Shown here in pieces: positions 39,081 to 61,282 of a stretch of 64,000 bases of DNA. Made by a program: the position numbers and the translations under genes. The notes beneath the pieces are model-generated. The model searched no databases. It was given only the letters and a program-made list of their open reading frames with translations, and had not been told where the DNA came from. The stretch is taken from the NCBI GenBank assembly GCA_964638415.1, contig CAZWYP010000002.1, positions 97,997-161,996 of the forward strand, written 5' to 3'. The stretch comes from an uncultured Gammaproteobacteria bacterium (lineage in GTDB: Bacteria; Patescibacteriota; Patescibacteriia; UBA1558; GWA2-36-10). Each line of letters starts with the position of its first letter. Positions within the stretch are counted from its first letter, which is position 1.

Positions 39081-39094
39081 ATAAATTAATTTAA

Positions 39095-39127
39095 TAAACC
39101 CCATACTTGATATGGGGTTTATTTTAT
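39095..39127. terminator. Bidirectional terminator between convergent genes.
   Basis: AAACCCCATA-cttga-TATGGGGTTTATTTT. Confidence 0.7.
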
Positions 39128-40312: not shown

Positions 40313-40316
40313 TCTT

Positions 40317-41576: not shown

Positions 41577-41666
41577 TTTTAAATATAAGTTTTGAAAATT
41601 TATATTACCATCCTAATTTAGCGCGAAAGATAGGTTGTGGGTACATAGCTTTTCTCCTTGAGGAAA

Positions 41667-41711
41667 GCTATAATCCCTAACTTATCGCTATAATCGCGCG
41701 CGATTAGGGAT
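41667..41711. promoter_or_regulatory. Composite operator-like element upstream of the giant surface-protein gene. A perfect 16-bp palindrome TAATCGCGCGCGATTA (41691-41706) is flanked by ATCCCTAA/TTAGGGAT arms and a duplicated GCTATAATC (-10-like) box.
   Basis: Read directly. The palindrome overlaps a TATAAT. Confidence 0.5.
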
Positions 41712-41934
41712 GGTATGTTCCTAGAAAATTAAATTGTGTTTTTTGAGCCTAAAGAACTCAAAACTTATTTGTGGCCTATAAGTCCAATGTCCAGAAAGGT
41801 CGACGCCGTTAAGGGGTTGGGAATTGGAGATTATAGTTTAGTCCGTTATTCTTGCAAAAGAATAAGGATGCTCGCAGATAGGACCGCACATTTATGTTCT
41901 AGCGTAACATCTTATAATTAATAAAAACGAATAC

Positions 41935-44900
41935 ATGAATTTAGTAAAGAAGTTTTTTGTCTTTGCTTTAATGCTGACCACTGTAACCACATTGTCAGTT
42001 ACCCCAGCTTTTAAGGTAGAAGCTGCTGGTAGCTATGGCACTGGCTCACTCTTGGCCTTACAAGGTGCGTCCGATGCCGCAGTGTACTACATTGGTTCAG
42101 ATGGAAAGAAATATGTCTTTCCAGATGCGAAAACATATTTCACCTGGTACGAAAACTTTGACAATGTTGTCCGAGTCCCAGTATCAGAATTAGATATGTA
42201 CCCAGATGGCGGAGCGGTTACCTACCGTGCCGGTACCAAATTGGTAAAGCATATCAATACTGCTAAAGTGTATGCCGTTGAACCAGGCGGAGTCGTCCGC
42301 TGGATCACCGACGAAGCTACTGCTATCTCCTTGTTTGGAGCTAACTGGGCTTCTCGCGTCCAGGACGTTATCCCAGGTTACTTCTCATCCAGCTATACAG
42401 TTGGTGATGATATGGGCAACACTTTACCAACCGGTTCTTTAGTCATGGAACCAGGTGGCAGCACTTACTACTACATTGAAAATGGCACCAAGAGACCATT
42501 TGCTTCCGCTGATGCGTTTGAAGCTAACGGTTTTGACTATGACAATGTATTGACTATGAGTTTATCAGGTTACACCGAAGGTGATTCTATCACCGGTGAG
42601 GAAGCTGAATTGTCAGGCTTTATGCCAGGCGAAGGCGGCCAGACTCCAGTCGGTGGTGACTTGAATGTTTCTTTGGCCTCAGACACTCCAGCTGTTGGTG
42701 TAGCTGTTACTGGAGCCGCTCGCTTACCTTTTACCAAGGTTAGATTGCAGACTGGTGCTTTGGGTGTGACCATTGATTCTATTGTTGTTGAGCGTGGCGG
42801 ATTAGGTCAGGATGGCGCTTTTACTAGCGTTGATATCTTAGATTCTAATATGTTGCCTTTTGACAACAACTCTAAGAGTTTTAATTCTACTCATCAGGCT
42901 ACCTTCACCAAGGATATTACTATCCCTGCTAACACCACTATGTATATTTACTTAGCTGGTAATATGGGAACTATTGGTAACACCTATGCCGGTGAATATC
43001 CAACTTTGGGTATTTCCAGCATTACTTTAGCTGGCGGTGGTTCAGTGATTGGTTCTTTGCCAATTTTCGGTAACTACATGACTACCAATGGCACTTTAGC
43101 TATTGGTTCAGCAACAGTTTCCCGTGGTTCTTACACCAACTCTACTTCTTCAACTTTGGAAGTCGGTCGCACTGATTACAGCTTCTTCTCCTTCCAGGTA
43201 GAAAATACCGGAAATGAAGACTTATCTTTGCGCCAACTGAGCGTGTACCAACAAGGTACCGCTGATCCAGACACTGATTTATCTGATTTTGAGTTGTTTA
43301 GAGACGGTACTAAGTTAGCTGATGGTATGGTTAATGGTGATTACATTAATTTTGTATTAACTTCACCATTGCTTATTCCTGAAGATCAGATTTACCAATT
43401 CCAGGTAAAAGCTGATATTGTTGACGGTTCTGCTAGAACAATAGATTTAGGTGTTTACCGTGCCACTGACCTATTATTTATGGGTCAGACCTATGGTTAC
43501 AATGTAACTCCTACCTATTCTGGAACTGGTTATTCAACAAACTCACCAGTTTTAAGTGATAATGAATTCACTATTTCTACTGGTACTTTGACTGTTGAAC
43601 GGAGCACCACTGTTGGTTCTGAAAATATTTCCATTGGAAATAATCAGGTCTTAGGTGCTTTCAAATTCACTGTTAAAGGTGAGCCAATTAGTATTACCGA
43701 TTTAACTTTGGCCATTGCGTCTACTACAGGTGCAACCACACAGAAGGTGGGCGCTTTGGAGGCAGTAAAATTAGTAAATGCTACTTCAAATACAACCTTG
43801 GCTGGCCCAACAGATCATCTTGATGGTTCTACTAACATTGTCTTCTCTGACACCTTTACTTTGCCAGTAGGAGATACAGTAGTGAAAGTGGTTGGTAATT
43901 TACGTGTCAACAAGGGTTGGGATACTGATGATACAATTTATGCCAGTATTGCTGCTCCAGAAACAGATATTACTGCCGAAGGAGAAGTTACTGGTAATAA
44001 TTTAACTGCGGCTGAAATTACTCCAACCGCAGCTGTTTCTACCAATACCCAAACTGTTAAAGGAGCTTACTTAGCTGTTACCCGCAACACTTTACCAGCT
44101 TCTGGTACAGTAATTGCCGGTCAGCAGGATGTAGAATTAGGTTCTTGGACCTTTAACGCCACTAACTCTGGTGAAGATGTTCGCGTAACCACTATTGCTT
44201 TTGCAGCCTCTTCCTCAGCAGCTACCAATTTAACTGTGTTTGACGGTACTACCGCCTTAACGCCAGTTAATGATGCTCCAGATTCAACAGTTGACGGTGC
44301 AACCACTACATTTAATTTTGATTCACCAATCATTATTACCAAGGGTACTTCCAAGACTATTAAATTAGTTGGTGACATTAACACTAATGCCACCGCTGAT
44401 CAGTCCTCACAGTTTGGTATTACTGATGCTTCTACTTACGACAATCCATCGGTACAGGCTTATGGTGTTTCCACCAATGCCCGCGCCTACACAGCAATTA
44501 CTGCTGATAACGGCGCTATCTTTACCTACTCTGGTACTGGTACTGTAACTGTCAGCAACAACAATAATCCAAACAATGGATTTGTTCGCGCTGGTTCAAC
44601 CGGTAATATCTTCGGTTATATCAAGATTGATGCTTTGAATGAAGATTTAGATCTTGATGAATTACATGTCTTTGTAGCGGATGGCGGTGTTACTGGTACT
44701 GCTACTGGTAACTATCAAGATGTTGCTATGTTATACATCTACGATGGTTCAACCTTATTAGGCAGCGCTTCCAGTCCAACTGACCAATCTACTGGTATGT
44801 ATGATTTCGACTTCCCGAATGGTACTTTGACTGTCGCCAAAGATAGTTACAAGACTTTGACTGTCAAGGCTGACATGGCTACTATCAGCCAAACTGTTGA

Positions 44901-45708
44901 TAATGCCCCTGGTACTCCGGGAGTTGACATCAAGTTCGGCTTAGGCGGAACTGATGGCTTCAAGTTCACTGGTAACGCTTCTAACAGCACTATTACCTCT
45001 GAAACTTACAATGGTTCTACCACTTCTGCTATGGTCTTGCACAAAGCTATCCCAACCGTAACCTTCTCAACTACTTCTAATCGTTTGGGTGCCGCTTCTG
45101 CTTTGACTAACGGCGCGGTGGATCTGTATGCCTTCAATGTTGCTGCCGACAATGGTGGTAACGAAGTGTTGCTCTATCGAGCCACCTTTGAAGTTGCTAC
45201 TTCTGGTGCCGGTGCTTGGGGTCTAACTAACTGTATTTTGAAAGACGGTTCTGGCAACACTGTTGGTGCTGCCACTACCCCAACTGGCGCGGATGCAACT
45301 GCTATGAACTTGTTGACTTATACTTTCAATAATCCAAATATTTCTGCCGGTGATGCACAAGAAGCCTTGACTATTGCTACTGGAAGTTCAGCTACTTATA
45401 CCTTGAATTGTCAGGTATCTGGCGCTGATTCTGGAGACGTTGTCAGTGTTGCCTTAGTTGGTGATGCTGCTTCATCCACCCCAGCTGCCAGTCATGGTAC
45501 TCCAGCTGCCGCTGGTCAGAATACCGCCGCTGCTTGGTCTGCTTATGACAAGGGTAACTTTGTCTGGTCAGACAACTTCAAGAATCGTGGTTTAGCTACC
45601 GACGGTGCTAATGCTACCGCTTACGGTCAATGGTATAATGGTTACTTAGTGCCAGGTATTGGTACTGTAGGAACCACTTCTGCCTACACTGTTGGTTGGT
45701 CAAGCTAA
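41935..45708 (+). CDS. Giant (1257 aa) secreted cell-surface protein, S-layer or adhesin-like. Signal peptide, then three tandem aromatic-rich repeats of about 55 aa, then a long Thr/Ser/Gly/Asn-rich beta-rich region.
   Basis: MNLVKKFFVFALMLTTVTTLSVTPAFKVEAAG signal. Repeats VYYIGSDGKKYVFPDAKTYFTW, KVYAVEPGGVVRWITDEATAISLFG and TYYYIENGTKRPFASADAFEANGF. The remainder is more than 30% T+S+G+N. Confidence 0.7.
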   Translation: MNLVKKFFVFALMLTTVTTLSVTPAFKVEAAGSYGTGSLLALQGASDAAVYYIGSDGKKYVFPDAKTYFTWYENFDNVVRVPVSELDMYPDGGAVTYRAGTKLVKHINTAKVYAVEPGGVVRWITDEATAISLFGANWASRVQDVIPGYFSSSYTVGDDMGNTLPTGSLVMEPGGSTYYYIENGTKRPFASADAFEANGFDYDNVLTMSLSGYTEGDSITGEEAELSGFMPGEGGQTPVGGDLNVSLASDTPAVGVAVTGAARLPFTKVRLQTGALGVTIDSIVVERGGLGQDGAFTSVDILDSNMLPFDNNSKSFNSTHQATFTKDITIPANTTMYIYLAGNMGTIGNTYAGEYPTLGISSITLAGGGSVIGSLPIFGNYMTTNGTLAIGSATVSRGSYTNSTSSTLEVGRTDYSFFSFQVENTGNEDLSLRQLSVYQQGTADPDTDLSDFELFRDGTKLADGMVNGDYINFVLTSPLLIPEDQIYQFQVKADIVDGSARTIDLGVYRATDLLFMGQTYGYNVTPTYSGTGYSTNSPVLSDNEFTISTGTLTVERSTTVGSENISIGNNQVLGAFKFTVKGEPISITDLTLAIASTTGATTQKVGALEAVKLVNATSNTTLAGPTDHLDGSTNIVFSDTFTLPVGDTVVKVVGNLRVNKGWDTDDTIYASIAAPETDITAEGEVTGNNLTAAEITPTAAVSTNTQTVKGAYLAVTRNTLPASGTVIAGQQDVELGSWTFNATNSGEDVRVTTIAFAASSSAATNLTVFDGTTALTPVNDAPDSTVDGATTTFNFDSPIIITKGTSKTIKLVGDINTNATADQSSQFGITDASTYDNPSVQAYGVSTNARAYTAITADNGAIFTYSGTGTVTVSNNNNPNNGFVRAGSTGNIFGYIKIDALNEDLDLDELHVFVADGGVTGTATGNYQDVAMLYIYDGSTLLGSASSPTDQSTGMYDFDFPNGTLTVAKDSYKTLTVKADMATISQTVDNAPGTPGVDIKFGLGGTDGFKFTGNASNSTITSETYNGSTTSAMVLHKAIPTVTFSTTSNRLGAASALTNGAVDLYAFNVAADNGGNEVLLYRATFEVATSGAGAWGLTNCILKDGSGNTVGAATTPTGADATAMNLLTYTFNNPNISAGDAQEALTIATGSSATYTLNCQVSGADSGDVVSVALVGDAASSTPAASHGTPAAAGQNTAAAWSAYDKGNFVWSDNFKNRGLATDGANATAYGQWYNGYLVPGIGTVGTTSAYTVGWSS

Positions 45709-45747
45709 AATTTACTTTCAGTAAATTAAGCTTTCAAGCTAACAAGT

Positions 45748-45780
45748 CAGCCCCCGCAATAATTTTGCGGGGGCTGCTTG
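45748..45780 (+). terminator. Strong GC hairpin after the giant gene (weak T-run).
   Basis: CAGCCCCCGC-aataatttt-GCGGGGGCTG. Confidence 0.45.
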
Positions 45781-45831
45781 TCAAAAGGGGATAAATATAA
45801 TAGAATTAGCAGGTATTTATTATTTTAAATT

Positions 45832-46521
45832 ATGAAAAAAGAAGGCAAAAAATATACAATTATTATCCTTATTGTGGTGGTTATTGGCATAGTGGCTATT
45901 GTTATTTTTAATAGTCTTGACAATAAAGATAATAAGCCAAAGGTAGTTGATATCAGCCATGTTTATGTGGCCGCGGATTTTCCCAACAGTACTTTGGATG
46001 AGAAGAATTTAAATGTTTTTTTAGAAAAATTGAACCGCAATTATGATTTTCTGCGCCAGGACTCCGGCTTTGATCCTTATGACCTGTGGGTAGATATTGG
46101 CAATACCAAGTTAGGACTTAATGATTATAATGGAGCTATTGAAGCCTGGGAGCAGGCGATTAGCTTAAACGAGCTTAATCCCTTGGCTTATGCTAATTTA
46201 GCCAATCTCTACAAGGATTTTGTTAAGGATTACGCTCAGGCGGAAAAATATTATGATTTGGCGATTAGCAAGGATAATATTGGTTATTTTCCGGACTACC
46301 AGTCTTTTGCTGAATTGCACATTCATTATTTGCCGGAAAACAGCGGTAAGGTAGAAGCGATTATGCTTTCCGGCGCGGAAGTGGCCCAAGGTAATAATAA
46401 AATTCCTTTTTATTACTACCTTTATGATTATTTTAAAGAAAAAGACAAGTCTAAAGTGGACTACTACCGTCAGCAGATATTAACGGTTGACCCCAATTTT
46501 GACTGGTCTCAATATGAATAG
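45832..46521 (+). CDS. N-terminally anchored TPR-repeat protein.
   Basis: TM helix then TPR-like AWEQAISLNELNPLAYANLANLY. Confidence 0.5.
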   Translation: MKKEGKKYTIIILIVVVIGIVAIVIFNSLDNKDNKPKVVDISHVYVAADFPNSTLDEKNLNVFLEKLNRNYDFLRQDSGFDPYDLWVDIGNTKLGLNDYNGAIEAWEQAISLNELNPLAYANLANLYKDFVKDYAQAEKYYDLAISKDNIGYFPDYQSFAELHIHYLPENSGKVEAIMLSGAEVAQGNNKIPFYYYLYDYFKEKDKSKVDYYRQQILTVDPNFDWSQYE

Positions 46522-46529
46522 ATAACAAC

Positions 46530-48872
46530 ATGCTAGTGAATAAAAAAATATTAAGTCGTTTTATTTGGGTATTGTTGGGGTTAATAATGTTAACTCCACT
46601 GTATGTTAATAGCGACTGGTTTTTCCCTTATATTTTTTCTAAGACTTTAGCCTTTAGAATTCTGGTTGAAGTCTTATTTTTAGTCTGGCTAGCCTGGCTT
46701 TATACTGCTAGAGAAAAAATAAAAATAGACTGGTTGACTATTATCTTTACTGTCTTCATGTTAACCATGTTTATTTCTTCGCTATTCGGCCCTTATTTTT
46801 ATTTCAGTTTTTGGAGCAATATTGAGCGCAGCGAAGGTTTGTTACTCTGGTTGCACTTATTTGCTTTATTCTTAGTCCTGCGCAATTTTATTGTCGGCCG
46901 TAATCAGTGGAAAATTTTGATAAACATATTCTTTGCTTCCGCCCAGATTGTCGCCTTAATCGGATTATTGCAGTATTTTAACGTGGATTTTATTAATCAT
47001 GGAGCTGCTAGTGATGAACGAGTTTCTTCCACTATTGGTAATGCCGCTTATTTAGCTGGATATTTATTATTTGCCGCTTACTTTGGCTTGTATTTATTAT
47101 TTAAGCACCGCCAGAACATTTATCTGAAGGCTTATTATCTTGCTTTTGTCTTGATGGATCTTTTTGTAATGGCGCAGACCGGTACTAGAGGAGCTTTTTT
47201 GGCCTTAATTATTACCGCTTTTTTATTCTTAGTTTACAATGTTATCCAGTTAAAAAATAGAAAGTTTAAATACTCCTTACTATTAGTCGGAGTTTTAATT
47301 GCTTTAAGTATTGTTTTAGTTTATTTAAATAAAGATAGTAATTTTGTAAAAAACAGTCTGCCTCTGCAGCGCTTAGCTAACATTTCTTTTAGTGAGAGGA
47401 CCGCTCAAACTCGCTTAATGGCCTGGAATGCGGCCTGGCAGGGCTTTTTAGATAGGCCACTGTTAGGCTGGGGCAATGAGAATTATTATATTGTATTCAA
47501 TAGGTATTTTGATCCGGAGATTTATTCCCATGCTGGGTCTCGCGTTTGGTTTGATCGGGCGCATAATATTTTCTTGGATCATTTGGTGAACGGAGGAATA
47601 ATTGGTTTTATTGCTTATTTATTTTTCCTTTTCGGTCCGATCTGGATTTTATTTAAAAGGGGAGTCTGGTCTAATTCTTTATGGTCTAAATTTAGGAAAA
47701 AATTGCCAATAGGAGCTCCGGTTAAAATGAATTTTGGTAATCAGATGCTGTTGTTGTCTACGCTTGCTTTCGTGATTCAAGGATTATTAGTATTTGAAGC
47801 TCTGGTTACTTATCTTCCCTTACTGATAATCTGGGCTATGATTGGCGAGAAGTATTTTAAGACCAAGTGGGAAATAGGTAGTCGTAATATATTCTTATGG
47901 ACTACAGTTGTTTATTTACTGGCCCTTTTTCCTATTATGTATTATGTAAATTACCGCGAAGCCAAGGCTAGTGGTGCGGTCATTGAAGCTTTGCGTTTAG
48001 AAAACGCTGATTATGCCGCTTCCAAGGAAATTACCAGTAATAATTATATTAAAGCTATTGAGACCTACTACCAAGCTATTAATTACAACAGTTCAGGGAC
48101 CAATGAATATCGCCGTAGATTAGCAGAGTATGTTGATGGACTAGTGGTTGGCCGGAATATTACTCCTTATGAGGCTTTGAAATACGTAGAGGAATTAGAT
48201 AAGGAATTATATAAGCGTTTGGAGGAAAATCCTTATGATGCCGCTAATTTAATACTGCTAATGCGCCATTATAATTATACTTATATTTTAAATTATAACC
48301 GCTTGTATGAAGTCGCTAAAATTGGAGAATTATTAAAAGCCTTAAGTCCAACTAGACCCCAGCTTTATCATGAATTAGGCTATGCCGATCTTTATTTATA
48401 CCAGCATTTTAGGGACGCCGGCGATACAGTGCAAGCAGAAAAATACCAGAAATCATTGTTAGATAATTTCCAATACGCTATTGATTTGAACAATGACGTA
48501 GTGGAATCTTATGTTAATATGATTATGTCTTTAATTGCTTCTGATCAGCCGGATAAGGTACAAGGTTATTTAGATATTATGGATCAGATGCAGCTCAATT
48601 ATTACCGGGAAGATTATCTGAACCGTATGGTTAATTCCGCTATTAATGCCAAGGATTATTTTTGGATGGAGAAACTGTTGAATGTTCTTATTGAAAAATA
48701 CCCAGAGAACCCTAACTATTTAATCCGTTTAGCTGTTGCTTATGCTTCCCAGGATAAGGATGATTTAGCCATTTCCACAGCAGAGAGAGTAAAAAGTTTT
48801 GGCGCCCAGTATAATTCTCAAGTAGATGAATTTGTCAGGCAAGTTCGAGCAGGAACTTTCCAGATTGAATAA
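46530..48872 (+). CDS. O-antigen ligase/polymerase (Wzy_C) family polytopic membrane protein fused to a TPR-like C-terminal domain of about 350 aa. Candidate O-oligosaccharyltransferase.
   Basis: About 12 TM helices. Wzy_C-like region with GTRGAFLAL...AHNIFLDHLVNGGIIG. Long TPR-like tail. Confidence 0.65.
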   Translation: MLVNKKILSRFIWVLLGLIMLTPLYVNSDWFFPYIFSKTLAFRILVEVLFLVWLAWLYTAREKIKIDWLTIIFTVFMLTMFISSLFGPYFYFSFWSNIERSEGLLLWLHLFALFLVLRNFIVGRNQWKILINIFFASAQIVALIGLLQYFNVDFINHGAASDERVSSTIGNAAYLAGYLLFAAYFGLYLLFKHRQNIYLKAYYLAFVLMDLFVMAQTGTRGAFLALIITAFLFLVYNVIQLKNRKFKYSLLLVGVLIALSIVLVYLNKDSNFVKNSLPLQRLANISFSERTAQTRLMAWNAAWQGFLDRPLLGWGNENYYIVFNRYFDPEIYSHAGSRVWFDRAHNIFLDHLVNGGIIGFIAYLFFLFGPIWILFKRGVWSNSLWSKFRKKLPIGAPVKMNFGNQMLLLSTLAFVIQGLLVFEALVTYLPLLIIWAMIGEKYFKTKWEIGSRNIFLWTTVVYLLALFPIMYYVNYREAKASGAVIEALRLENADYAASKEITSNNYIKAIETYYQAINYNSSGTNEYRRRLAEYVDGLVVGRNITPYEALKYVEELDKELYKRLEENPYDAANLILLMRHYNYTYILNYNRLYEVAKIGELLKALSPTRPQLYHELGYADLYLYQHFRDAGDTVQAEKYQKSLLDNFQYAIDLNNDVVESYVNMIMSLIASDQPDKVQGYLDIMDQMQLNYYREDYLNRMVNSAINAKDYFWMEKLLNVLIEKYPENPNYLIRLAVAYASQDKDDLAISTAERVKSFGAQYNSQVDEFVRQVRAGTFQIE

Positions 48873-48885
48873 TTAATTATTAGTA

Positions 48886-50586
48886 ATGAAATTAGCCATT
48901 GGTTTGTCAAAAATTAAGTGGCCGCAAATCGCTATAGTAGCTATATTATTATTAGCTACTATTTTGCGTTTTTACGCGCTGGATCGGGCTGATGTCTTGA
49001 CTGACGAAGCTTCAGTCAGCTTCCGCTCCATTGGCTATTTTGACTGGCTGGCTACTCCTTACCAAACTACGCCCTTAGAGTGGCTGTCTAGCCGTCCCAC
49101 TTGGACTTATTTATCTTTTCATGATCATCCTCCTTTCAGCTTTTTGCTGCAATTCTTGCAATTTAAAATTACTGGCGTTTCCATTTTAACTATGCGGTTC
49201 TGGCCGGCTCTCTATGGCGTATTAAGCGTTTGGCTGGTTTATTTAATTGGCCGCCGTTTATTCTCCAACAGCCTTGGTCTATTAGCAGCTGGGTTATTAG
49301 CTGTTAACAATCTGCATATCTGGATCTCTCGTTTAGCTTTGCAGGAGTCATTGGTTGTCTTATTGATTTTAACCAGCTTTTACTGGTGGCTGAAATTTTT
49401 GGAAAATAGGAAGTATTTTTATTGGTTGGGGTTATTCATAGGTTTAAGCTTATTGGCCAAATTAACAGCCATTATTTTACTGCCGATAATCTTTGGCTAT
49501 CTTATTTTCTGGCGGAAAGATATTCTACGCTGGCGGGAATTTTACTGGGCAGTAATTATTGCACTGGCCGTCTGGTCGCCTTATTGGGTTTATAATATTA
49601 TTTTGTATCAGAATTTCGGCCATTTTGATTTCCAATTATCCTGGCTTTTAGGACAGCCGGTAGAAGCTTGGCAACAGCGCCCCGGGCGTACGGAAGTGCC
49701 TAATAAGTCATCAGCTTTGTTTTTTATCTTTGGCGGCCTTAAGTATAGCTTGTCTCCAATATTCTTTTGGCTGGTTAATTTGAGCTTAGTGGCAGGGATA
49801 ATTAAGTTATTTAAGGATAAATTCAGCGATAAGAATTTTTCTTATTTACTATGGATAATTTTATCTCATCTTATCCTTTTGATTTTTATCGGCAGCAGCG
49901 CCAGATTTCTTGCTCTGCTCACCCCTTGGCTGTGCTTATTGTTAGCCTATGCTTTATTAATTTGGCATCGTTATTTTTCCCAGGTCTTCATGATTATTAT
50001 TTTATGCTTGATATTTGTGGTCGAAGTTTTTTATAGCTATAATACCAATATTAATTATGTTTTTTGGGGCAAGAAGAATATTACTTATTCGCCGTTGAAG
50101 AGCCAGGCTTATCCTTATGGCTATAACCAGCTAGAAAATTATTTTGATAATCTGTTATCCAACCAGAAACCAGCTGTGCTGTTATCTGTAGTGAATCCAA
50201 ACATTAATAATTTTATTAAAGAGCAAGTTGCTAAAAATACCGGACAGCCGCAAGCTAAGATGGTCATTTATGACCAGCGCTTGCAAGGGGAGAGCTTACT
50301 GTGGTTTTTTACCAGAAGATTTTTTTACCAAGGCTGGCCTATGCTGCCCTATGATACTTACCAGCAGGCCCTATCTTTGCAAGGCGAGGATTTATTTCGC
50401 CAGTTGGGAATCAAAGACTTTTACTATGTGATGCCCACTGATGTGCTGCCGCTGGATTTAACTAATGAGGCGGCTAATAATGAGCTTGTTAATTTTGTTT
50501 CTCGTTTACAAGAACAGGGGATACAGCCGCAAAAAATATTTAATCATCAGGGGAAATTAATATTTGAAGTTTACCATTTTAATTAA
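48886..50586 (+). CDS. GT-C fold glycosyltransferase of the PMT/ArnT (GT39/GT83-like) family.
   Basis: Polytopic N-terminus with a first-loop DE motif (LTDEASVSF). HDHPPFSFLL motif. Large C-terminal soluble domain. Confidence 0.7.
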   Translation: MKLAIGLSKIKWPQIAIVAILLLATILRFYALDRADVLTDEASVSFRSIGYFDWLATPYQTTPLEWLSSRPTWTYLSFHDHPPFSFLLQFLQFKITGVSILTMRFWPALYGVLSVWLVYLIGRRLFSNSLGLLAAGLLAVNNLHIWISRLALQESLVVLLILTSFYWWLKFLENRKYFYWLGLFIGLSLLAKLTAIILLPIIFGYLIFWRKDILRWREFYWAVIIALAVWSPYWVYNIILYQNFGHFDFQLSWLLGQPVEAWQQRPGRTEVPNKSSALFFIFGGLKYSLSPIFFWLVNLSLVAGIIKLFKDKFSDKNFSYLLWIILSHLILLIFIGSSARFLALLTPWLCLLLAYALLIWHRYFSQVFMIIILCLIFVVEVFYSYNTNINYVFWGKKNITYSPLKSQAYPYGYNQLENYFDNLLSNQKPAVLLSVVNPNINNFIKEQVAKNTGQPQAKMVIYDQRLQGESLLWFFTRRFFYQGWPMLPYDTYQQALSLQGEDLFRQLGIKDFYYVMPTDVLPLDLTNEAANNELVNFVSRLQEQGIQPQKIFNHQGKLIFEVYHFN

Positions 50587-50592
50587 AATCTT

Positions 50593-52341
50593 ATGGAATT
50601 CATGCAAAAATTTTGGCGCAAATTAAATCAGCGGGAATTGATTTTATTAGGGATTATTTTATTATTCGGCGCTTGGTTAAGATTAGTCAATCTGGACCGT
50701 GCTGACATGCTGTCTGATCCGGCAATTAACGCTTTTCGCGCTATTGGCTTGACTGACTTCCTAACTTCTCCGACGCAAACCACGCCTATGCAGTGGTTTG
50801 ATACTAAGCAATGGTGGCAGAATTTATCTTTTCATGACCACCCAATCCTGACTTTTTTAACCGAGCACATTTTCTTTAAAGCTTTTGGCGTTTCCGTCAC
50901 CGTCGCGCGTCTGCCCTTTGCGCTATTAGGAGCTTTAAGCATTTGGCTTATTTATTTATTAGCCAGTAGAGTTTTTAACAAGCAGATTGGTTTATTGTCT
51001 GCCGGATTATTGGCAGTAGTCAATTTCCATGTTTGGCTTTCCCGTTCCGGTTATTTGGAGTCATTTGTCATTGTTTTTATCCTGTTGTCATTATTTTTTG
51101 CTTACCAAGCCAGGAAAGAAAGAAAACATCTGTATTGGGCTGCATTATTTTTAGGCTTGGGATTATTGTCTAAATACACAATAATGTTTATCATTCCGTC
51201 TTTAATTATTTGGTGGCTTATTTATGACCGTAAGATTTTTGTTAATAAGCATTTTTATTTATCCATAGCTTTATTATTGTTAGTTATTAGCCCGATCATT
51301 ATCTACAATCTTAATATGTTTTGGACCAGGGGGCATTTTGATGCTGCTTTATCCAGTATGGTCGGACAAACCCCTGATGATTTTAAATTACTACAAAGGT
51401 CATTAGCTTCAGATTATCTAGGCAATATCTTGCTGCAGCTTAAAGAATTATCTCGAATTTTTAGTCCTGCTTCTATTATTGCCTTCATTCTAGGTTTAGC
51501 ATATTTTTTACTGCGCTGGTGGAAAACTAGCGATACCAAGCGCTTTGCTATTATACTCATACCATTAGCTTTCCTTTTCCTGCAAAATATATTTTTAGGC
51601 AATATCTGGTTTTTTAGCTTATACATTCCATTCTTGGTGATCATCTTATCTTACGGAATATACAAGCTAGCCATTTTTGTTAATAGGAAATTCAAGAAGT
51701 TTAGTGGTATTTTAATTATCCTCTTATTTGTTTTCTTTGTTTATGAAGCATTTTACAGTATTAATACCAATGTATTGTATCGGACAGTGGGTAGCAGCCC
51801 CTGGCTTTATTCTGAACACCGGCAAGAAAATTTCGGGTATAATCGTCTAGATAAGTATTTAAATAATGTTTTAGCAGATTACCATGGTAGCCTATTCTTA
51901 GATTACTACAAGGATTATCCCCAGGTTTCTAGTTATTATGCAAGATTACAAGAGCAGCCATTGAATTATTTGCCTAGGGGAGAAAAGCAGACTGACGTGG
52001 TATATATTTATGATCCGCGGGTAGATTGGTTTGCTCAGATGTGGATTTTTGAGCGCAGAAAAATTTATCAGCAATTTACTATGCTGACCGTTGACCAATT
52101 CGCTTTCCTTTTAGGTAATAACGGATTTAAGCCTTTTGAGGAAAGCGGCTTGACCAAGTATTATTTTATTAACACTACGGATAAGGTTACCAGAGATAGT
52201 AAATTGACAACCGCTCAGGGAGATATATTAGCTAATTATTTAGCAGAGAAAAATATACAACCGATTGATGAGATATATAATAACCGCAATGAAATTGCTT
52301 TTGTGATTTATGAGATACCGCCAGAAGTGCTGTTGAAGTAA
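50593..52341 (+). CDS. Second PMT/ArnT-like GT-C glycosyltransferase, a tandem paralog.
   Basis: Same architecture (LSDPAINAFRAIGLTDF...HDHPILTFL). Clearly homologous to the upstream gene. Confidence 0.7.
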   Translation: MEFMQKFWRKLNQRELILLGIILLFGAWLRLVNLDRADMLSDPAINAFRAIGLTDFLTSPTQTTPMQWFDTKQWWQNLSFHDHPILTFLTEHIFFKAFGVSVTVARLPFALLGALSIWLIYLLASRVFNKQIGLLSAGLLAVVNFHVWLSRSGYLESFVIVFILLSLFFAYQARKERKHLYWAALFLGLGLLSKYTIMFIIPSLIIWWLIYDRKIFVNKHFYLSIALLLLVISPIIIYNLNMFWTRGHFDAALSSMVGQTPDDFKLLQRSLASDYLGNILLQLKELSRIFSPASIIAFILGLAYFLLRWWKTSDTKRFAIILIPLAFLFLQNIFLGNIWFFSLYIPFLVIILSYGIYKLAIFVNRKFKKFSGILIILLFVFFVYEAFYSINTNVLYRTVGSSPWLYSEHRQENFGYNRLDKYLNNVLADYHGSLFLDYYKDYPQVSSYYARLQEQPLNYLPRGEKQTDVVYIYDPRVDWFAQMWIFERRKIYQQFTMLTVDQFAFLLGNNGFKPFEESGLTKYYFINTTDKVTRDSKLTTAQGDILANYLAEKNIQPIDEIYNNRNEIAFVIYEIPPEVLLK

Positions 52342-52344
52342 AAT

Positions 52345-52380
52345 AAAAACGCCTGGACTATTATTCCAGGCGTTTTGTTT
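52345..52380. terminator. Bidirectional terminator between convergent genes.
   Basis: AAAACGCCTGGA-ctattat-TCCAGGCGTTTTGTTT. Confidence 0.75.
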
Positions 52381-52386
52381 AGAAGT

Positions 52387-52782
52387 TTATATTTTAGCAA
52401 ACGGCTCCATAGACATGATTATTTGACTTTCTTGGTGGCTGATTAGTTTTCTATTTTCAACAGTTTCTACCAGTTTGAGTAATTTATTATCCTCTTTGCG
52501 GATCATGACGATGAGATCACCGCGTAGATCCATTAGCTTTTCATCTAAGTAATCCTTGGTGACTATTTTATTTTGGATGATGCTTTCAACATTAGTTAAT
52601 CTTTGATCTAAACCATCGAATCTGTTCTCCAGGCCATCGAACCTGTTTTCTAAACCATCGAATCTGTTTTCCAGTGTATTAAACCTATTTTCCATATGTT
52701 CCGCAAAAGTATTAACTGCTGACAATACAGTATCAATAGATTGTTGTAAATCCTCCTTAGTTAAATAATCGTTTTTCTTCAT
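52387..52782 (-). CDS. Coiled-coil protein with tandem heptad repeats (ENRFDGL x3-4).
   Basis: Repeats NRFNTLENRFDGLENRFDGLENRFDGLDQRL. Encoded by 21-nt tandem DNA repeats. Confidence 0.45.
   Translation of the reverse strand: MKKNDYLTKEDLQQSIDTVLSAVNTFAEHMENRFNTLENRFDGLENRFDGLENRFDGLDQRLTNVESIIQNKIVTKDYLDEKLMDLRGDLIVMIRKEDNKLLKLVETVENRKLISHQESQIIMSMEPFAKI
52608..52693. repeat. Four tandem 21-nt repeats (consensus AAACCATCGAATCTGTTTTCC on the plus strand) inside the coiled-coil gene.
   Basis: Direct reading. The units are in frame and encode the ENRFDGL heptads on the minus strand. Confidence 0.7.
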
Positions 52783-52839
52783 ATTTTCTTCTTAATTTAT
52801 TAGATTTTAATTATATTCCAGCTTATTTTATTAGTCAAA

Positions 52840-54027
52840 TTAAAATAGTTTACAGTATAATTTTTCCGTTTCTGCTAGAGTTTTATTTAAAGAAAATCTG
52901 GTGCGGATATTGTGTTCGTTGTTTTCAATAAGTTTTTTACTTAAAATCTGGTTATTAGCAAGAGTTTCCATAGCCTTCAGCAAGGAAAGAGGATTAGCGG
53001 GAGTGGTTAATAATCCAGTTTCATTATCGGTTAAGATTTCCGGAATGCCGCCAACGCGGGAAGCAATGGTGGGAATTCCTGCTAGTCCTGCTTCCAGAAT
53101 AGTATAGGGCAACCCTTCTTTGACGGAGGGGAGGATAAAGTAGTCAAAAGCTTTTAAAAATTTCCAGTCATTATTTTTAGCTGGTACTATTTTAATATAC
53201 TCCTGCAGATTATTGCGTTCTATTTTCCCTTTAATATTATTTTCTTCCGGACCTTCGCCAATAAAAATCCAACGATGATTTTGTAATAATGGTGACTTTT
53301 GCTCAACTAAGCTTTTTATTGCTTCAATTAAATAGGGATAGCCTTTAGTCTCATAGAAACTGGCGATGGTGCCAAAGTATTTTTTATCTTCAGACAAGCC
53401 AAGCTCTTGTTTGGCTTCGGCTTTGGACAAGAAATCGTATTCAGAAAAATCCAGTCCATTATGAATAGTGATCATTTTCCTGGCTGGGCAGATCTTATTA
53501 TCTAAAGCGCTTTGCTTGTCAAAGTCAGAAACAGTAATAATAGCAGTCTGCAGCCCAGTAGAGAATTTCTCTGACATTTTATAGATCAACTTCTGCAGTT
53601 TATTTAGCGGCTCATTAAAGACAAAGCCGTGCGCAGTATAGACTATTCTGGTTCTGACATTGAGAGGATTCATATTGTATCCTTGGGCGGCTAAAGTGCC
53701 TAATAGGCCGACCTTAGAGCTGTTAAGATGAATTAAATTATATTGCCCTTGCTTAATAATCTTACTTAAGTCTCTAATAGCGGACAGCTCTTTGGCTGGT
53801 TCAATGTTGCGCATTAAGTTTTTAACAGGAATAGTTTTAATGCCTAATTTATCTGCTTGGTCAAGAAAAGTCTGATCAAGATTGGCAATTTCCCCATAAG
53901 CAATTTCTACTTGATTATCTTTGGCAAAATATTTAGCCAATTGCCAGACATACTTTTGCGCGCCACCCCATTTAGTTTGAGTGACTATGTAGAGAATTTT
54001 TTTACCTGATAGTTTATTTTCTGGCAT
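52840..54027 (-). CDS. Glycosyltransferase family 4 (GT-B, RfaB-like).
   Basis: C-terminal EGLPYTILEAGLAGIPTIASRVGGIPEI motif. Confidence 0.8.
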   Translation of the reverse strand: MPENKLSGKKILYIVTQTKWGGAQKYVWQLAKYFAKDNQVEIAYGEIANLDQTFLDQADKLGIKTIPVKNLMRNIEPAKELSAIRDLSKIIKQGQYNLIHLNSSKVGLLGTLAAQGYNMNPLNVRTRIVYTAHGFVFNEPLNKLQKLIYKMSEKFSTGLQTAIITVSDFDKQSALDNKICPARKMITIHNGLDFSEYDFLSKAEAKQELGLSEDKKYFGTIASFYETKGYPYLIEAIKSLVEQKSPLLQNHRWIFIGEGPEENNIKGKIERNNLQEYIKIVPAKNNDWKFLKAFDYFILPSVKEGLPYTILEAGLAGIPTIASRVGGIPEILTDNETGLLTTPANPLSLLKAMETLANNQILSKKLIENNEHNIRTRFSLNKTLAETEKLYCKLF

Positions 54028-54056
54028 ATTTTGGCTAAAATTAGCTATATTTTAGA

Positions 54057-54085
54057 TTGACTTTTTACTTGATTATTGGTATAAT
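54057..54085 (+). promoter_or_regulatory. Sigma70-like promoter (TTGACT-17-TATAAT) for the downstream glycosyltransferase operon.
   Basis: ttgactttttacttgattattggtataat. Confidence 0.5.
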
Positions 54086-54125
54086 TTTATAGAATTTAAG
54101 AAGATAAATCAAGAGCAGCGGAAGC

Positions 54126-55253
54126 ATGAAAATATTAATTGCTACAGGAATATTTAAACCGGAAATCGGCGGGCCGGCTACTTATGTGGATAAGATAGCT
54201 AAGGAATTTTTGCGCTTAGGACATCAAGTGTCGGTTTTAACCTACAGTGATCAATATTTTCCAGAATTAGATAAACAATTGGATTATCCTGTTAAAAGAG
54301 TGATTAGAACTAATAAGCTGCAGAATTATTGGCGGTATTACCAGGCAGTCAAAGAAATTAGCCAGCAGAACAATTTTGATTTGCTTTATTGTTTTGATCA
54401 TTTCAGCGCCGGTTTACCTGTTGCTATGGCTAATTTAAAATTACACCGGCCTTTATTTATCCGCGTCGGCGGAGATTTTATCTGGGAAAGATATTTAGAG
54501 CAGTCTGGAAATTTAGTCACTTTGCGTCAATTCTATTTGCAGAAACTCCATTTAAAAACAGAAGCTTGGCGCTTTAAAATTATTAAGTGGGTTTTTAGTA
54601 AGGCCACCAAAATAATTTTTACTACGGAATTTCAAGCCAATATCTTTATTAAGAATTATAAATTAAAGTCAGATAAGCTGGCAATAATTAAAAATCCAGT
54701 GGAGAATAATTTAGTAATTAATGAAGATCATCAAAGGAGTAAGGAAATAGTTTTTATTGGCAGGTTGATTAATAACAGTAATTTAAAAAATTTAATTACA
54801 GCTTTTGACAAGATTAAAGATAAAAGTTTTTCTTTACATATAATCGGTGAAGGTCCATTGTGGAATAAGCTGCAGAATTTGATATTAAAATATGAAAATG
54901 TTTATTTAGAGCATAAGGTATTAGATCAGGAATTATTAGAGAGATTGCAACGGGCTTACCTGGTTGTTTTTCCCCAATTGACGAATATTAGCCCTAACAC
55001 CATGCTAGAATGTTTAAAGTTACAGACCCCTTTTATTAGCACTCAGGAAATAGGCTTTAACTGGTTAAAAGATAGCATTATTACTTTTAATCCACTGGAT
55101 ATTGATGACATGTCAAATAAGATTAGTTATTTGACTGATACTAACCATTATACTGAATATTGTAAAAAATTGTCGCAAATTGAATATTCTTATGACTACC
55201 AGCAAGCAGCGGACGATACGCTGAAGTTATTTAAAGAGCGGTCACCAAAATAA
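54126..55253 (+). CDS. GT4-like glycosyltransferase.
   Basis: N-terminal KILIATGIFKPEIGGPATYV GT4 N-domain. GT-B C-terminal domain. Confidence 0.65.
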   Translation: MKILIATGIFKPEIGGPATYVDKIAKEFLRLGHQVSVLTYSDQYFPELDKQLDYPVKRVIRTNKLQNYWRYYQAVKEISQQNNFDLLYCFDHFSAGLPVAMANLKLHRPLFIRVGGDFIWERYLEQSGNLVTLRQFYLQKLHLKTEAWRFKIIKWVFSKATKIIFTTEFQANIFIKNYKLKSDKLAIIKNPVENNLVINEDHQRSKEIVFIGRLINNSNLKNLITAFDKIKDKSFSLHIIGEGPLWNKLQNLILKYENVYLEHKVLDQELLERLQRAYLVVFPQLTNISPNTMLECLKLQTPFISTQEIGFNWLKDSIITFNPLDIDDMSNKISYLTDTNHYTEYCKKLSQIEYSYDYQQAADDTLKLFKERSPK

Positions 55254-55258
55254 TCAAT

Positions 55259-56383
55259 ATGAATATAGTTAATATTGGCATAGATAAAAGTTTGGTCGGC
55301 GGCCGACAATTAGGTGATGCGGTGGCCAGGCATAAAAAGTATGGTGAATATACCGATCATCTGGATATTATCGTTTATACCGATCAGGAAGATAAGCTGG
55401 AAAAATATTATATTTCAGATAAGGTTTTAGGCCATCCTACCAATTCCCGGTCAAAATTGAATTTCTTTTTTGATACCCAAGAGATTTTTAAGAAGATAAA
55501 TGAACAGCATCCGGTAGATATTATTGTCTGCCAAGATCCATTTATTTGCGGTTTAATCGGCATTTGGCTGAAAAAGAAATTTCCCGTCAAAGTGCAAATA
55601 AATTTCCACGGCGATTTCTGGCAGAATACCAATTGGCTCAAAGAGCGCTGGTTAAATTTTATCTTTCTATTAGTTTCCAAATACACAGTATTTAAAGCTG
55701 ACGCCATTAGGGTGATGAGCGAAGGGCAGAAAGAAAAATTAATTAAAGCCGGCATTAAAGCCAATAAGATTAGAGTAATTTCTACGCCGGTTAATATCGA
55801 CAATTTCCTTGCTAAACAACCTTTACCAGCAGAATTAAAGACAGAAAAAAAGGTAATATTAATGGTAGGAAGAAAAGATAAGGTTAAAGATTTTTCAACC
55901 CTATTTAAAGCTATTTGTTTGGTCTATGAAAAGTTTGTTAATCTAGAATTTTGGTTAGTAGGCAATTACACAGAAGAGGAAAAATCAAAATTGCCACTCC
56001 CACCAAAATTAACTGTTAAGCTTTTTGGCAGAACAGATATTAATGACTTGCCAAAGTATTACCAAGCAGCTGATTTAACAGTCTTATCGTCCACTTCAGA
56101 AAGTTTCGGCAAAGTTTTGGTAGAAGCTAATGCTGCCGGGAAACCGGTTATTGCTACTACTACCACCGGCGCTAAAGAAATAATTCAGGATGGGCACAAT
56201 GGATACTTGGTGCCCATTAAGGATTACCAGGCTTTGGCAGATAAGGTTCTTTATTTATTAAACAATCCAGATCAGGCTAAAAAGATGGGCGAGAATGGCT
56301 TAACTTTAGTTAAGGAAAGGTTTTCGGATAATACGGATAAAATAATTAATTTCTGGCAGGATATTATTAATAATAAGTTGTGA
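55259..56383 (+). CDS. Glycosyltransferase family 4.
   Basis: ESFGKVLVEANAAGKPVIATTTTGAKEII motif. Confidence 0.8.
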   Translation: MNIVNIGIDKSLVGGRQLGDAVARHKKYGEYTDHLDIIVYTDQEDKLEKYYISDKVLGHPTNSRSKLNFFFDTQEIFKKINEQHPVDIIVCQDPFICGLIGIWLKKKFPVKVQINFHGDFWQNTNWLKERWLNFIFLLVSKYTVFKADAIRVMSEGQKEKLIKAGIKANKIRVISTPVNIDNFLAKQPLPAELKTEKKVILMVGRKDKVKDFSTLFKAICLVYEKFVNLEFWLVGNYTEEEKSKLPLPPKLTVKLFGRTDINDLPKYYQAADLTVLSSTSESFGKVLVEANAAGKPVIATTTTGAKEIIQDGHNGYLVPIKDYQALADKVLYLLNNPDQAKKMGENGLTLVKERFSDNTDKIINFWQDIINNKL

Positions 56384-57078
56384 AATACTTAGTAGTAGTT
56401 CCCACATATAATGAAGCGGAAAATATCGTTAAACTAATTGACGAGATTTTTGCTTTAGCAATTGAGCAGTTATCTATTTTAGTGGTGGATGATAATTCTC
56501 CTGACCATACTGCTGAATTAGTTGAGGAATTAAAAAATAAATATCCAGATAAATTATTTTTAGCCAAACGCTCTGGGAAGCTGGGTTTGGGTTCAGCTTA
56601 CCAGTTCGGCTTTGCCTGGGCATTGGATCATGGTTATAACTTTGCTTTTTCCATGGATGCAGATTTTTCTCATAATCCCCAGGATTTGGTAAAATTAATG
56701 GAGGTTAGTAAGGATTATGATATTGTCTTAGCTTCGCGCAAAATTCCTGGTGGCAAAATTATTGGTTGGAATTGGCGCCGTTATTTAGCCAGTCATGGTG
56801 CGATGGCTTTATCCCGCTTGATTCTTTGGCTTAAAACCCACGATGTAACCGCTGGCTTTAAATGCTATAGCCGCAGATATTTGGAATTTTTGTTGAGTAA
56901 GAACATTAAGAGTAATGGCTATGCTTTCCAGATTGAGACTATATATCTGGCAGAAAAAAATAAATTTACTGTCAAAGAAATTCCTACTACTTTTGTGGAT
57001 CGCAAGTTTGGACAATCTAAATTATCTAGTAAGGACATTATTGAATTCTTTATTAATGTTATTAAATTAAGGTTTTAG
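56380..57078 (+). CDS. GT2 polyprenyl-phosphate glycosyltransferase (Dpm1/GtrB-like).
   Basis: VVVPTYNEAENI, VDDNSPDHT and DADFSHNPQD motifs. Confidence 0.8.
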   Translation: MKYLVVVPTYNEAENIVKLIDEIFALAIEQLSILVVDDNSPDHTAELVEELKNKYPDKLFLAKRSGKLGLGSAYQFGFAWALDHGYNFAFSMDADFSHNPQDLVKLMEVSKDYDIVLASRKIPGGKIIGWNWRRYLASHGAMALSRLILWLKTHDVTAGFKCYSRRYLEFLLSKNIKSNGYAFQIETIYLAEKNKFTVKEIPTTFVDRKFGQSKLSSKDIIEFFINVIKLRF

Positions 57079-57080
57079 GG

Positions 57081-58737: not shown

Positions 58738-58740
58738 GCT

Positions 58741-60588: not shown

Positions 60589-60592
60589 ATTC

Positions 60593-61279: not shown

Positions 61280-61282
61280 TGT

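Follow-up and report, generated by a model that had tools for sequence, protein, structure and literature searches.

What do two adjacent genes for membrane-embedded glycosyltransferases do next to the gene of a giant, Ser/Thr-rich secreted protein in a genome of the Patescibacteria, organisms that are abundant, mostly uncultured and reliant on contact with host cells, and whose envelope biochemistry is almost unknown? Here, we address this question for a stretch of 64,000 nucleotides (hereafter the window) of contig CAZWYP010000002.1 from assembly GCA_964638415.1, which encodes on its forward strand the GT-C glycosyltransferases A (48886..50586, 566 amino acids) and B (50593..52341, 582 amino acids) at a spacing of 6 nt. 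We favor, with moderate confidence, the interpretation that A and B are ancient type-A and type-B GT-Cs that use a polyprenyl-phosphate-linked sugar made by a glycosyltransferase family 2 (GT2) enzyme, and that they decorate the surface glycoconjugate of a conserved gene cassette, i.e., the giant protein or its glycan. As enzymes, A and B are unexceptional within a well-known superfamily, and the conserved gene neighborhood is more interesting. New here are the two-clade structure of the enzyme family, its Rosetta-stone link to the GT2, the operon boundary, and the conserved surface-protein cassette.

The open reading frames (ORFs) are exactly those of the original prediction, and structure models and alignment agree with its description of two adjacent genes of the same architecture. 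The homology of A and B extends over the entire proteins (BLASTP: 33% identity and 55% positives over 554 amino acids, E=6e-81), a similarity far beyond chance. Both match Pfam PMT_2 (PF13231) over profile positions 1-160/160, with 80.8 bits for A and 96.1 bits for B (cutoff 26.1). Matches to PMT (PF02366) are partial (profile positions 68-235/245) and score below PMT_2, with 47.2 bits for A and 38.9 bits for B (cutoff 22.7), and B alone marginally matches STT3 (26.5 bits, cutoff 24.5, residues 68-243). The AlphaFold2 models (A: pLDDT 96.1, pTM 0.94; B: pLDDT 94.4, pTM 0.93) begin with an N-terminal transmembrane (TM) helix and a first external loop of roughly 55 residues with short helices, followed by about 12 further TM helices and a juxtamembrane helix and loop at residues 231-273. 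The large C-terminal soluble domain of the original prediction reappears in the models as an alpha/beta domain of 170-190 amino acids past the last TM helix (A ~389-566, B ~394-582). In Foldseek searches against the PDB, every match with prob 1.00 (E 1e-8 to 1e-5) was a GT-C enzyme (STT3, AglB, PglB, ArnT, Pmt4, ALG9/12), with no solved family clearly closest to A and B. Compared with PDB sequences, the profile of the family matched Pmt4 (3.6e-7), Pmt1 (4.9e-7), ArnT (1.8e-6), and STT3A (9e-5), and in single-sequence phmmer searches of the same sequences, neither A nor B nor the giant protein had a match at E<=1. A and B are members of Pfam PMT_2 and of GT-C superfamily class A (STT3/ArnT/PMT-like fold), and the PMT/ArnT-type assignment was right as to the superfamily.

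How old is the pair? Homologs of A and B were found solely in metagenome-assembled genomes (MAGs) of the Patescibacteria/Candidate Phyla Radiation (CPR), with Doudna-, Buchanan-, Ryan-, Niyogi-, Harrison-, Sungii-, Giovannoni-, and Paceibacteria as named lineages; those that carry a name are annotated as 'glycosyltransferase family 39 protein', which is an NCBI annotation only. Among 185,579 species-representative genomes, a pattern scan yielded 274 relatives, the best 80 of which are almost all titled as, or clearly resemble, Patescibacteria MAGs (loci are cited below by L numbers, individual proteins by P numbers). Some titles of relatives are obviously automatic ('uncultured Gammaproteobacteria', 'Saccharibacteria', one 'Micrarchaeota'), and third-party annotation (TPA) MAG records with a Patescibacteria-type locus (L009, L011, L034, L037, L046, L072, L075) are titled 'uncultured Gammaproteobacteria bacterium' or 'Micrarchaeota archaeon'; Gammaproteobacteria and Micrarchaeota titles on such loci are probably taxonomic mislabels.

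The family falls into two deep clades. Type A combines a loop-1 D-E with HDHPP, whereas type B has D-x together with HD-x-PP, mostly HDAPP. The split is supported by a neighbor-joining tree, and hidden Markov models (HMMs) of the clades separate the types cleanly; in leave-one-out scoring, A reached 681 bits with the type-A model and 452 with the type-B model, and B 597 bits with type B and 529 with type A. Orthologs of A with 51-56% identity occur in the same cassette, and the best homolog of B is only 38% identical. The closest relatives of A (L001-L004, L007) have no B copy, and because the A ortholog is followed not by a B ortholog but by a second copy of Wzy_C (L001/L002) or a reverse-strand GT4 gene (L003/L007), A and B are not a recent tandem duplication. 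A recent or local duplication was also rejected on the tree, in which B groups in the type-B clade and A in the type-A clade. From the term 'tandem paralogs' in the original prediction, adjacency and homology stand, whereas local duplication has to be given up for two ancient clades. Judged by these comparisons, the pair is a juxtaposition of two old subfamilies, i.e., ancient paralogs, within a family whose members came from Patescibacteria alone in our searches.

The motif strings originally read from the two proteins are all present, namely LTDEAS and HDHPP (residues 79-83) in A, and LSDPAI and HDHPI (residues 81-85) in B. In register, L-T-D40-E41-A-S of A aligns with L-S-D42-P43-A-I of B. 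The catalytic-type dyad D40-E41 (49003..49008, forward strand, as for all motifs given here) is nearly universal in the A-seeded set (D in 121/121 and E in 119/121 sequences), and its counterpart D42-P43 in B (50716..50721) keeps the Asp and replaces Glu by Pro. The change from DE to SD described earlier for B was a register error; the change is from DE to DP. In the combined alignment of 182 sequences the loop-1 Asp is found in all but a few rows (2 Glu, 3 gapped). The family D-E falls on the PMT motif 'FDEVH', an alignment of weak HMMER segments (6.0 and -2.4 bits); of the D-E dyad of GT39/PMT, A has both residues and B the first.

The second motif, HDHPP in A (H79-P83, 49120..49134) at the start of TM2, contains the invariant residues D80 and P82 and aligns to Y-F-E84-K85-P-P of the C. 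metallidurans ArnT and to VHPP of PMTs. Its counterpart HDHPI in B (H81-I85, 50833..50847) has Ile for the second Pro, one of four departures from the type-B consensus. A third motif, G245-H246-F247-D248 (49618..49629; B equivalent 51331..51342), lies in the external loop past the juxtamembrane helix according to DSSP assignment on the AlphaFold2 model; none of 138 sequences departs from H246 or D248, and we propose this GHFD loop as a possible analog of the PL4 His/His site of ArnT. A fourth, G-x3-R-F, includes R340-F341 of A (49903..49908), of which R is >=90% conserved; its Arg aligns to R405 of STT3A and its Phe to Y345 of ArnT (weak HMMER segments), and the equivalent W339-F340 of B (51607..51612) has Trp for the conserved Arg. 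Eleven positions are invariant in the 138-sequence alignment (D53, Q60, W73, S77, F78, D80, P82, P232, N237, H246, D248), and those conserved at >=90% include D36, D40, R47, H79, R104, R149, E154, K192, and R340. In the ArnT structure, E84/K85 touch the metal, and R405-class arginines and ArnT Y345 sit at the donor phosphate (PMC7801869); ArnT mutants in D55, K85, and K203 lose function (PMC8698208). As inferred from topology, the invariant residues of A and B would cluster in space.

Is B then an impaired enzyme, as its altered dyad might suggest? All 11 family-invariant residues are present in B, including D42, D55, D82, H248, and D250. B departs from its own clade at 4 of 60 strongly conserved positions, P85I, Q91E, G335L (alignment-dependent), and R339W. 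The last of these is notable for the putative phosphate-binding role of the Arg, although its place is taken by H in P0122 and P0131, by W in P0135, and by K in P0136, which are the nearest relatives of B. The residue after the loop-1 Asp varies throughout the type-B clade (D 28, A 5, G 4, L 4, P 3, N 3, H 2). In the Pmt of S. coelicolor, the variant E114A still complements, whereas D113A and H159A do not (PMC8698208). Because the Asp is kept, the second position is variable clade-wide, and E114A is tolerated in S. coelicolor Pmt, inactivation of B on the grounds of the dyad is improbable, which corrects the tempting reading of an inactivated paralog and makes the partial inactivation considered in the original prediction unlikely in the form proposed. 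B is probably not a dead enzyme, and an altered donor site in its sub-clade is possible.

A broader version of this idea is that A is the enzyme and B a catalytically impaired partner, either part of an A-B heteromer comparable to Pmt1-Pmt2, with a structural or regulatory function, or a gene in decay. Consistent with it, B is changed at otherwise conserved positions (E to P, P85I, Q91E, R339W), its homologs do not exceed 38% identity whereas orthologs of A reach 56%, A and B occur together in at least nine cassettes including that of the window, and PMTs work as dimers (PMC12705809). We nevertheless regard an impaired B as unlikely, as its 582-amino-acid ORF is intact with a confidently predicted fold, the few clade-level deviations leave the invariant residues untouched, and the types also occur separately, with type A lacking B in L003, L007, L013, L018, and L087 and type B lacking A in L006. 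For the same reason, i.e., that each type is found alone in some cassettes, an obligate A-B heterodimer was rejected as a requirement.

Which sugar donor would such enzymes use? Downstream of the pair, the window encodes a DPM1-like GT2 on the forward strand (56380..57078, 232 amino acids), a candidate polyprenyl-phosphate-sugar synthase. It matches the catalytic domain of the P. furiosus dolichol-phosphate mannose synthase (DPMS; 5mlz, E=2.8e-30) over the whole GT2 length and ArnC with E=6e-9, has weak NCBIfam matches of PpgS/ArnC/AglJ type, and has no TM segments. A jackhmmer search in 86 related loci placed a DPM1-like GT2 within ~10 kb of the GT-C in 23 loci, and in several loci, e.g., L026, L058, L059, and L060, it directly adjoins the GT-C. 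Natural fusions with the GT2 at the N-terminus occur in both clades (P0035, type A, 808 amino acids; P0152/P0154, type B, ~805 amino acids), and the GT2 halves of P0035 and P0152 show 41-43% identity with the GT2 of the window. Topologically, such a fusion makes sense, since a cytoplasmic GT2 would precede TM1, and it constitutes a Rosetta-stone link from donor synthase to transferase. A GT2+GT-C fusion is also listed at L019 (9239..11662). From the DPM1-like GT2 in the cluster, the GT2s near family members, and the fusions, we infer a polyprenyl-monophosphate-sugar donor; a polyprenyl-phosphate monosaccharide as donor of A and B is the most likely and best-supported functional deduction from these genes. 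The use of polyprenyl-phosphate sugars put forward in the original prediction is thereby strongly backed.

The proposed mechanism comprises four steps. First, the GT2 (56380..57078) would place a monosaccharide on polyprenyl phosphate at the cytoplasmic face. Second, the lipid-linked sugar would be flipped across the membrane. Third, the GT-C would bind it at a putative membrane-embedded site formed by loop 1 (D36, D40, R47, D53), HDHPP at TM2, the GHFD loop, and G-x3-R-F. Fourth, in an inverting reaction, the GT-C would transfer the sugar to an acceptor at the outer membrane surface of the cell, type A and type B possibly adding sugars at different positions or linkages.

This proposal resembles the multi-component transmembrane glycosylation systems of monoderm bacteria (GtlA/GtcA/GtlB, GacI/J/K/L, GtsA/B/C, CsdC/D), which consist of a GT-A C55-P-sugar synthase, a flippase, and a PMT_2-type GT-C (PMC8035078). 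The GT2 and GT-C parts of this three-component description are found here as DPM1/GtrB-like GT2 and PMT_2 GT-C, the extracytoplasmic transfer of single sugars would be alike, and several GT-C paralogs with different targets per genome are likewise known from these systems. In contrast to them, no GtrA or Wzx flippase was found in the window ORFs scanned with Pfam, and the window GT2 has no TM segments. The A/B family further differs in a long loop 1 of its own (D36, D40-E41, R47, D53, Q60, W73, SFHDHPP), in a conserved C-terminal alpha/beta domain that has no Pfam match, and in the embedding of its genes in a surface-protein cassette.

With regard to the established families, strict membership in GT39 (PMT), GT83 (ArnT), and GT66 (STT3) each fails at least one test, and no NCBIfam family scored above cutoff for A or B. 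For GT66 (STT3-AglB-PglB), neither a WWD nor a W-x-D-x-G motif occurs in A or B, and archaeo_STT3 NCBIfam scores are 21-23 bits as compared to a cutoff of 450; an STT3-like oligosaccharyltransferase was rejected on the absence of WWD from both proteins. The GT39 enzymes (yeast Pmt1/2/4, Pmt of M. tuberculosis and S. coelicolor, C. bescii Cbes_1864) are alike in the Pfam PMT match, the loop-1 D-E, a (V)HPP-like motif, and the presumed polyprenyl-P-monosaccharide donor. However, the profile match is partial, B has no Glu in the dyad, and the C-terminal module of PMTs was not detected in A or B (no PMT_4TMC or MIR match at E<=0.01); the models have ~13 TM helices and the soluble alpha/beta domain, as compared to 11 TM helices in PMTs.

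For GT83, the overall architecture is similar. A and B share with ArnT of C. metallidurans (5ezm/5f15) the GT-C fold, ~13 TM helices followed by a C-terminal domain, which is periplasmic in ArnT, and a loop-1 Asp; ArnT is the best full-length structural match (TMt 0.52-0.54), 5f15 is the top Foldseek match of B, and ArnT E84-K85-P-P corresponds to D80-H81-P-P of A. On these grounds A and B might add an (amino)sugar to the phosphate of a membrane lipid or lipoglycan, and lipid A had been named as one potential acceptor in the original prediction. We consider ArnT-type lipid modification very unlikely. Sequence identity to ArnT is 12-14%, and neither protein matched a curated ArnT NCBIfam at E<=0.01, where just weak Agl23 and archaeal STT3 matches far below cutoff appeared. 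The ArnT motif Y-F-E-K-P-P is aligned but changed to F-H-D-H-P-P in the A/B family, with K85 replaced by His in type A, by Ala in most type-B proteins, and by His in B of the window. Moreover, there are no lipid A pathway genes in the window, the GT2 is nearer to DPMS than to ArnC, and the link to the cassette speaks for a surface protein or glycan. Patescibacteria are reported to lack lipopolysaccharide, and a lipid A acceptor for A and B is implausible in this lineage.

The gene neighborhood directs attention to the giant protein. A and B belong to a run of same-strand ORFs (41935..45708, 45832..46521, 46530..48872, 48886..50586, and 50593..52341) in which the last four are separated by 8, 13, and 6 nt. 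Directly after B follows a bidirectional hairpin terminator (52346..52376), whose perfect 12-bp stem includes 6 GC pairs and lies between an A-run and a T-run. From the short gaps and this strong terminator we conclude that A and B are the last two genes of an operon. The terminator separates B from a convergent gene for a 131-amino-acid coiled-coil protein (52387..52782).

The first ORF of the run encodes the giant protein (41935..45708, forward, 1257 amino acids), which is acidic, is predicted to be secreted by its signal peptide, and is rich in Thr (13.4%), Ser (8.4%), Gly (10.9%), and Ala (10.4%), with two Cys; the Ser/Thr-rich neighbor of the original prediction is thus confirmed in size and composition. 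No Pfam or PDB match was found for it. It has 258 homologs, every named one of which is from a Patescibacteria MAG (one is named just 'bacterium'), and full-length homologs among the matches listed are mostly ~1150-1400 amino acids long. A few carry dockerin (P0202, P0204) or PG_binding_1 (P0285), which suggests a module for anchoring to the wall or to a partner. The giant protein may be wall-associated or wall-anchored and possibly S-layer-like, and is a candidate acceptor for A and B. Between it and A lie genes for a TPR protein with a single TM segment (45832..46521, forward, 229 amino acids, Pfam TPR), a conserved cassette member beside the GT-C, and for a Wzy_C membrane protein with a C-terminal TPR-like domain (46530..48872, forward, 780 amino acids; Pfam Wzy_C 71.8 bits; WaaL 7tpg E=5e-5). 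The Wzy_C superfamily of O-antigen ligases and polymerases also includes O-oligosaccharyltransferases such as PglL and WsaB, the latter being the Wzy_C-type transferase of the slg cluster of G. stearothermophilus. Reciprocal jackhmmer matches show homology between the 229-amino-acid protein and the TPR part at the C-terminus of the Wzy_C protein.

Upstream of the giant protein, on the same strand, are genes for an ECF (extracytoplasmic function) sigma factor (39758..40312) and a DUF5667 membrane protein (40317..41576), both assigned by Pfam and conserved in 16 loci and also in L087-L089. Further upstream lies a gene for a MraY/WecA-family polyprenyl-phosphate sugar-phosphate transferase (35712..36776, forward; Pfam Glycos_transf_4 PF00953, 89 bits), a candidate glycan initiator that has the same position in L088 and L089. 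Downstream of the pair, a glycan-synthesis cluster (52840..63407, both strands taken together) encodes, by Pfam and NCBIfam, a reverse-strand GT4 (52840..54027), two further GT4s, the GT2, a GT1-type enzyme, three methyltransferases, an AsnB-type amidotransferase, and another GT4; orthologs of the reverse-strand GT4 directly follow the GT-C in related cassettes.

This arrangement is widely conserved. The upstream part of the cassette has the order WecA/MraY-family gene, DUF192, a gene for 242 amino acids, PDZ protease, (HTH_17), ECF sigma, DUF5667, and giant protein. The downstream part continues with TPR, Wzy_C+TPR, one or more GT-Cs, the reverse GT4, and then a GT4/GT2/methyltransferase/amidotransferase or radical-SAM cluster. 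Its position in the chromosome is fixed, just downstream of a ribosomal-protein/secY/adk/map/ruvX block. With variable TPR, Wzy_C, and GT-C content, the cassette was seen at 35712..63407 of the window and in L001-L004, L006, L007, L009-L020, L037, L046, L061, L074-L077, and L087-L089. The succession sigma-DUF5667-giant-TPR-Wzy_C-GT-C was found in L001-4, 6, 7, 9, 10, 12-20, 37, 46, 61, 74-77, and 87. At least eight other genomes contain A+B pairs (L010, L012, L014, L015, L016, L017, L020, L074), all but the last in the order type B, TPR, type A; L074 has two type-B genes and one type-A gene. Type A is alone in L003/L007, L013, L018, and L087, and L006 combines type B with a PMT_2+TPR fusion. 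Wzy_C is present in 1-3 copies in most related cassettes with downstream sequence and was not found in several Buchananbacteria-type cassettes; the copies in related cassettes are Wzy_C+TPR paralogs. In one of the otherwise identical loci L001 and L002, the Wzy_C gene at 7698..9989 is split into ORFs of 274 and 485 amino acids and in the other it is intact (764 amino acids), either an assembly error or a strain-level frameshift. The comparison of synteny and copy number suggested with the original prediction has thus revealed a conserved cassette with 0-3 GT-Cs. Our literature searches on DUF5667 and on S-layers or glycosylation of Patescibacteria/CPR yielded no description of this cassette.

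A strict dedication of the GT-Cs to the giant protein is not borne out by this comparison. Among cassettes of divergent giant-protein homologs, one of three contains a GT-C (L087), and L088 and L089 have only Wzy_C genes. Because these two have no PMT_2 gene within 10 kb, and because most family loci lie away from a giant-protein homolog, the GT-C family is not dedicated to this protein; of the link suggested originally, conserved synteny across many Patescibacteria holds. The giant protein is accompanied more regularly by Wzy_C proteins and GT4s than by the GT-Cs, and given the cassettes without any GT-C, A and B look like frequent but optional decorators of a glycoconjugate that are not part of the core pathway, as far as gene content can tell.

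What, then, would be the acceptor? It could be the ~1250-amino-acid Thr/Ser-rich protein itself, or a glycan made for or around it by the WecA-like, GT4, and Wzy_C enzymes. A precedent for a protein acceptor is the GT39 enzyme of C. bescii that is encoded beside its acceptor CelA (PMC6151902), and precedents for a glycan acceptor are the characterized PMT_2 GT-Cs of monoderm bacteria, which mostly decorate wall polymers (PMC8035078). As a sub-case of our favored interpretation, A and possibly B could be true PMT-like protein O-glycosyltransferases that put hexose on Ser/Thr of the 1257-amino-acid protein, with substrate recruited by the TPR protein in a split arrangement of the kind known as TMTC. 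The loop-1 DE motif shared with PMTs (in a weakly scoring alignment), the above-cutoff Pfam PMT match, and the conserved position next to a secreted protein that is 22% Ser+Thr are in line with this idea, as is the TPR protein that always stands beside the GT-C and is fused to PMT_2 in the cassette of L006, a domain combination of PMT_2-like and TPR that is also that of the TMTC O-mannosyltransferases (PMC7801869). As the GT-C genes studied here adjoin that of a Ser/Thr-rich secreted protein, so Cbes_1864 is encoded beside CelA. Yet we can advance protein O-glycosylation only tentatively. PMT_2 outscores PMT, and neither PMT_4TMC nor the 11-TM topology of PMTs is present; characterized monoderm PMT_2 GT-Cs act on lipoteichoic acid, wall teichoic acid, and secondary cell-wall polysaccharide (SCWP) instead of proteins (PMC8035078); the giant protein has no mucin-like Ser/Thr tracts, its Ser/Thr being spread through beta-rich sequence; and the existence of cassettes without GT-C, like the greater constancy of Wzy_C, fits poorly with a GT-C acting on this protein.

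Alternatively, the cluster may build an SCWP to which A and B add side-branch sugars on the outside, like GtsC, GacL, and GtlB, the giant protein being merely anchored or co-regulated. Gene content fits pathways of the B. anthracis and S. pyogenes type with their PMT_2 GT-Cs (PMC8035078), in that a WecA/MraY-family gene, GT4s, methyltransferases, an AsnB-type amidotransferase, and Wzy_C are present. The number of GT-Cs (0-3) and Wzy_C genes (1-3) per cassette would be compatible with a strain-variable glycan decoration, family members outside the cassette bring their own GT2, and giant-protein variants with PG_binding_1 or dockerin at the N-terminus suggest wall anchoring. The window ORFs scanned include no LCP ligase, Wzx, or ABC exporter, however, and SCWP loci are not typically linked so tightly, and in so conserved a position, to one particular protein gene and a sigma/anti-sigma pair. 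A wall polymer is also not known from these organisms, and we can advance wall-polymer decoration, too, only tentatively.

Several points weigh against our favored interpretation that A and B decorate the glycoconjugate of the cassette with a GT2-derived sugar. Donor identity, transfer chemistry, and acceptor are all deduced from sequence, and the matches of motifs to solved structures rest partly on weak HMMER segments. Neither a GtrA- nor a Wzx-type flippase was found among the window ORFs scanned with Pfam, and one may be encoded by other ORFs of the window or elsewhere in the genome. A single DPM1-like GT2 would have to serve two GT-Cs. B is atypical at two putative active-site positions (E to P, R339W) and its closest homolog is distant (38%), such that reduced or altered activity is possible. 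Finally, in L088 and L089, where genes for the giant protein, Wzy_C, and GT4s occur, no PMT_2 gene lies within 10 kb, and most of the 80 family loci are not beside a giant-protein homolog.

It is tempting to go one step further and to view the cassette as the long-sought Patescibacteria envelope glycoprotein locus, S-layer-like in kind, with A and B as lineage-specific machinery for protein O-glycosylation of a split, TMTC-like GT-C+TPR type, in which the divergent B, altered at its DE and Arg sites, has a different lipid-linked donor or serves as a specificity partner. This extension is improbable as a whole. With S-layer glycosylation loci such as slg of G. stearothermophilus, with WsaB, and SLCT-11 of C. 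difficile (PMC6254364), the cassette shares a surface-protein gene followed by GT genes, a Wzy_C-family protein, and methyltransferases. In contrast, paired PMT_2 GT-Cs, a TPR membrane protein, and ECF sigma/DUF5667 are not typical of those loci, and for the Patescibacteria protein, S-layer status and glycosylation are hypothetical. TMTC1-4, the eukaryotic PMT_2-like GT-Cs fused to TPR, are alike in combining GT-C and TPR, as does the fusion in L006, whereas in the window the two are on separate polypeptides and the likeness is one of domain combination. In our favored interpretation, two genes otherwise annotated as GT39 are placed in a defined framework, in which they belong to separate clades, probably use a polyprenyl-P-sugar as donor, and would act as optional decorators. 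A locus with its own sigma/anti-sigma pair and glycosylation genes is a candidate for a surface glycoprotein that could mediate host attachment or phage recognition.

Scans of the whole 64-kb window for tRNAs and Rfam families gave no match. The upstream part of the window encodes diacylglycerol kinase, FtsA, and FtsZ (3274..6128). A 113-amino-acid protein of the Phage_holin_4_2 family with four TM segments is encoded at 14477..14818, and translation-related genes of the window include those of a peptide release factor (PCRF/RF-1, 8207..9295) and SecY (at 32569). A ribosomal-protein operon at ~18-33 kb can be deduced from ORF sizes and synteny with L088.

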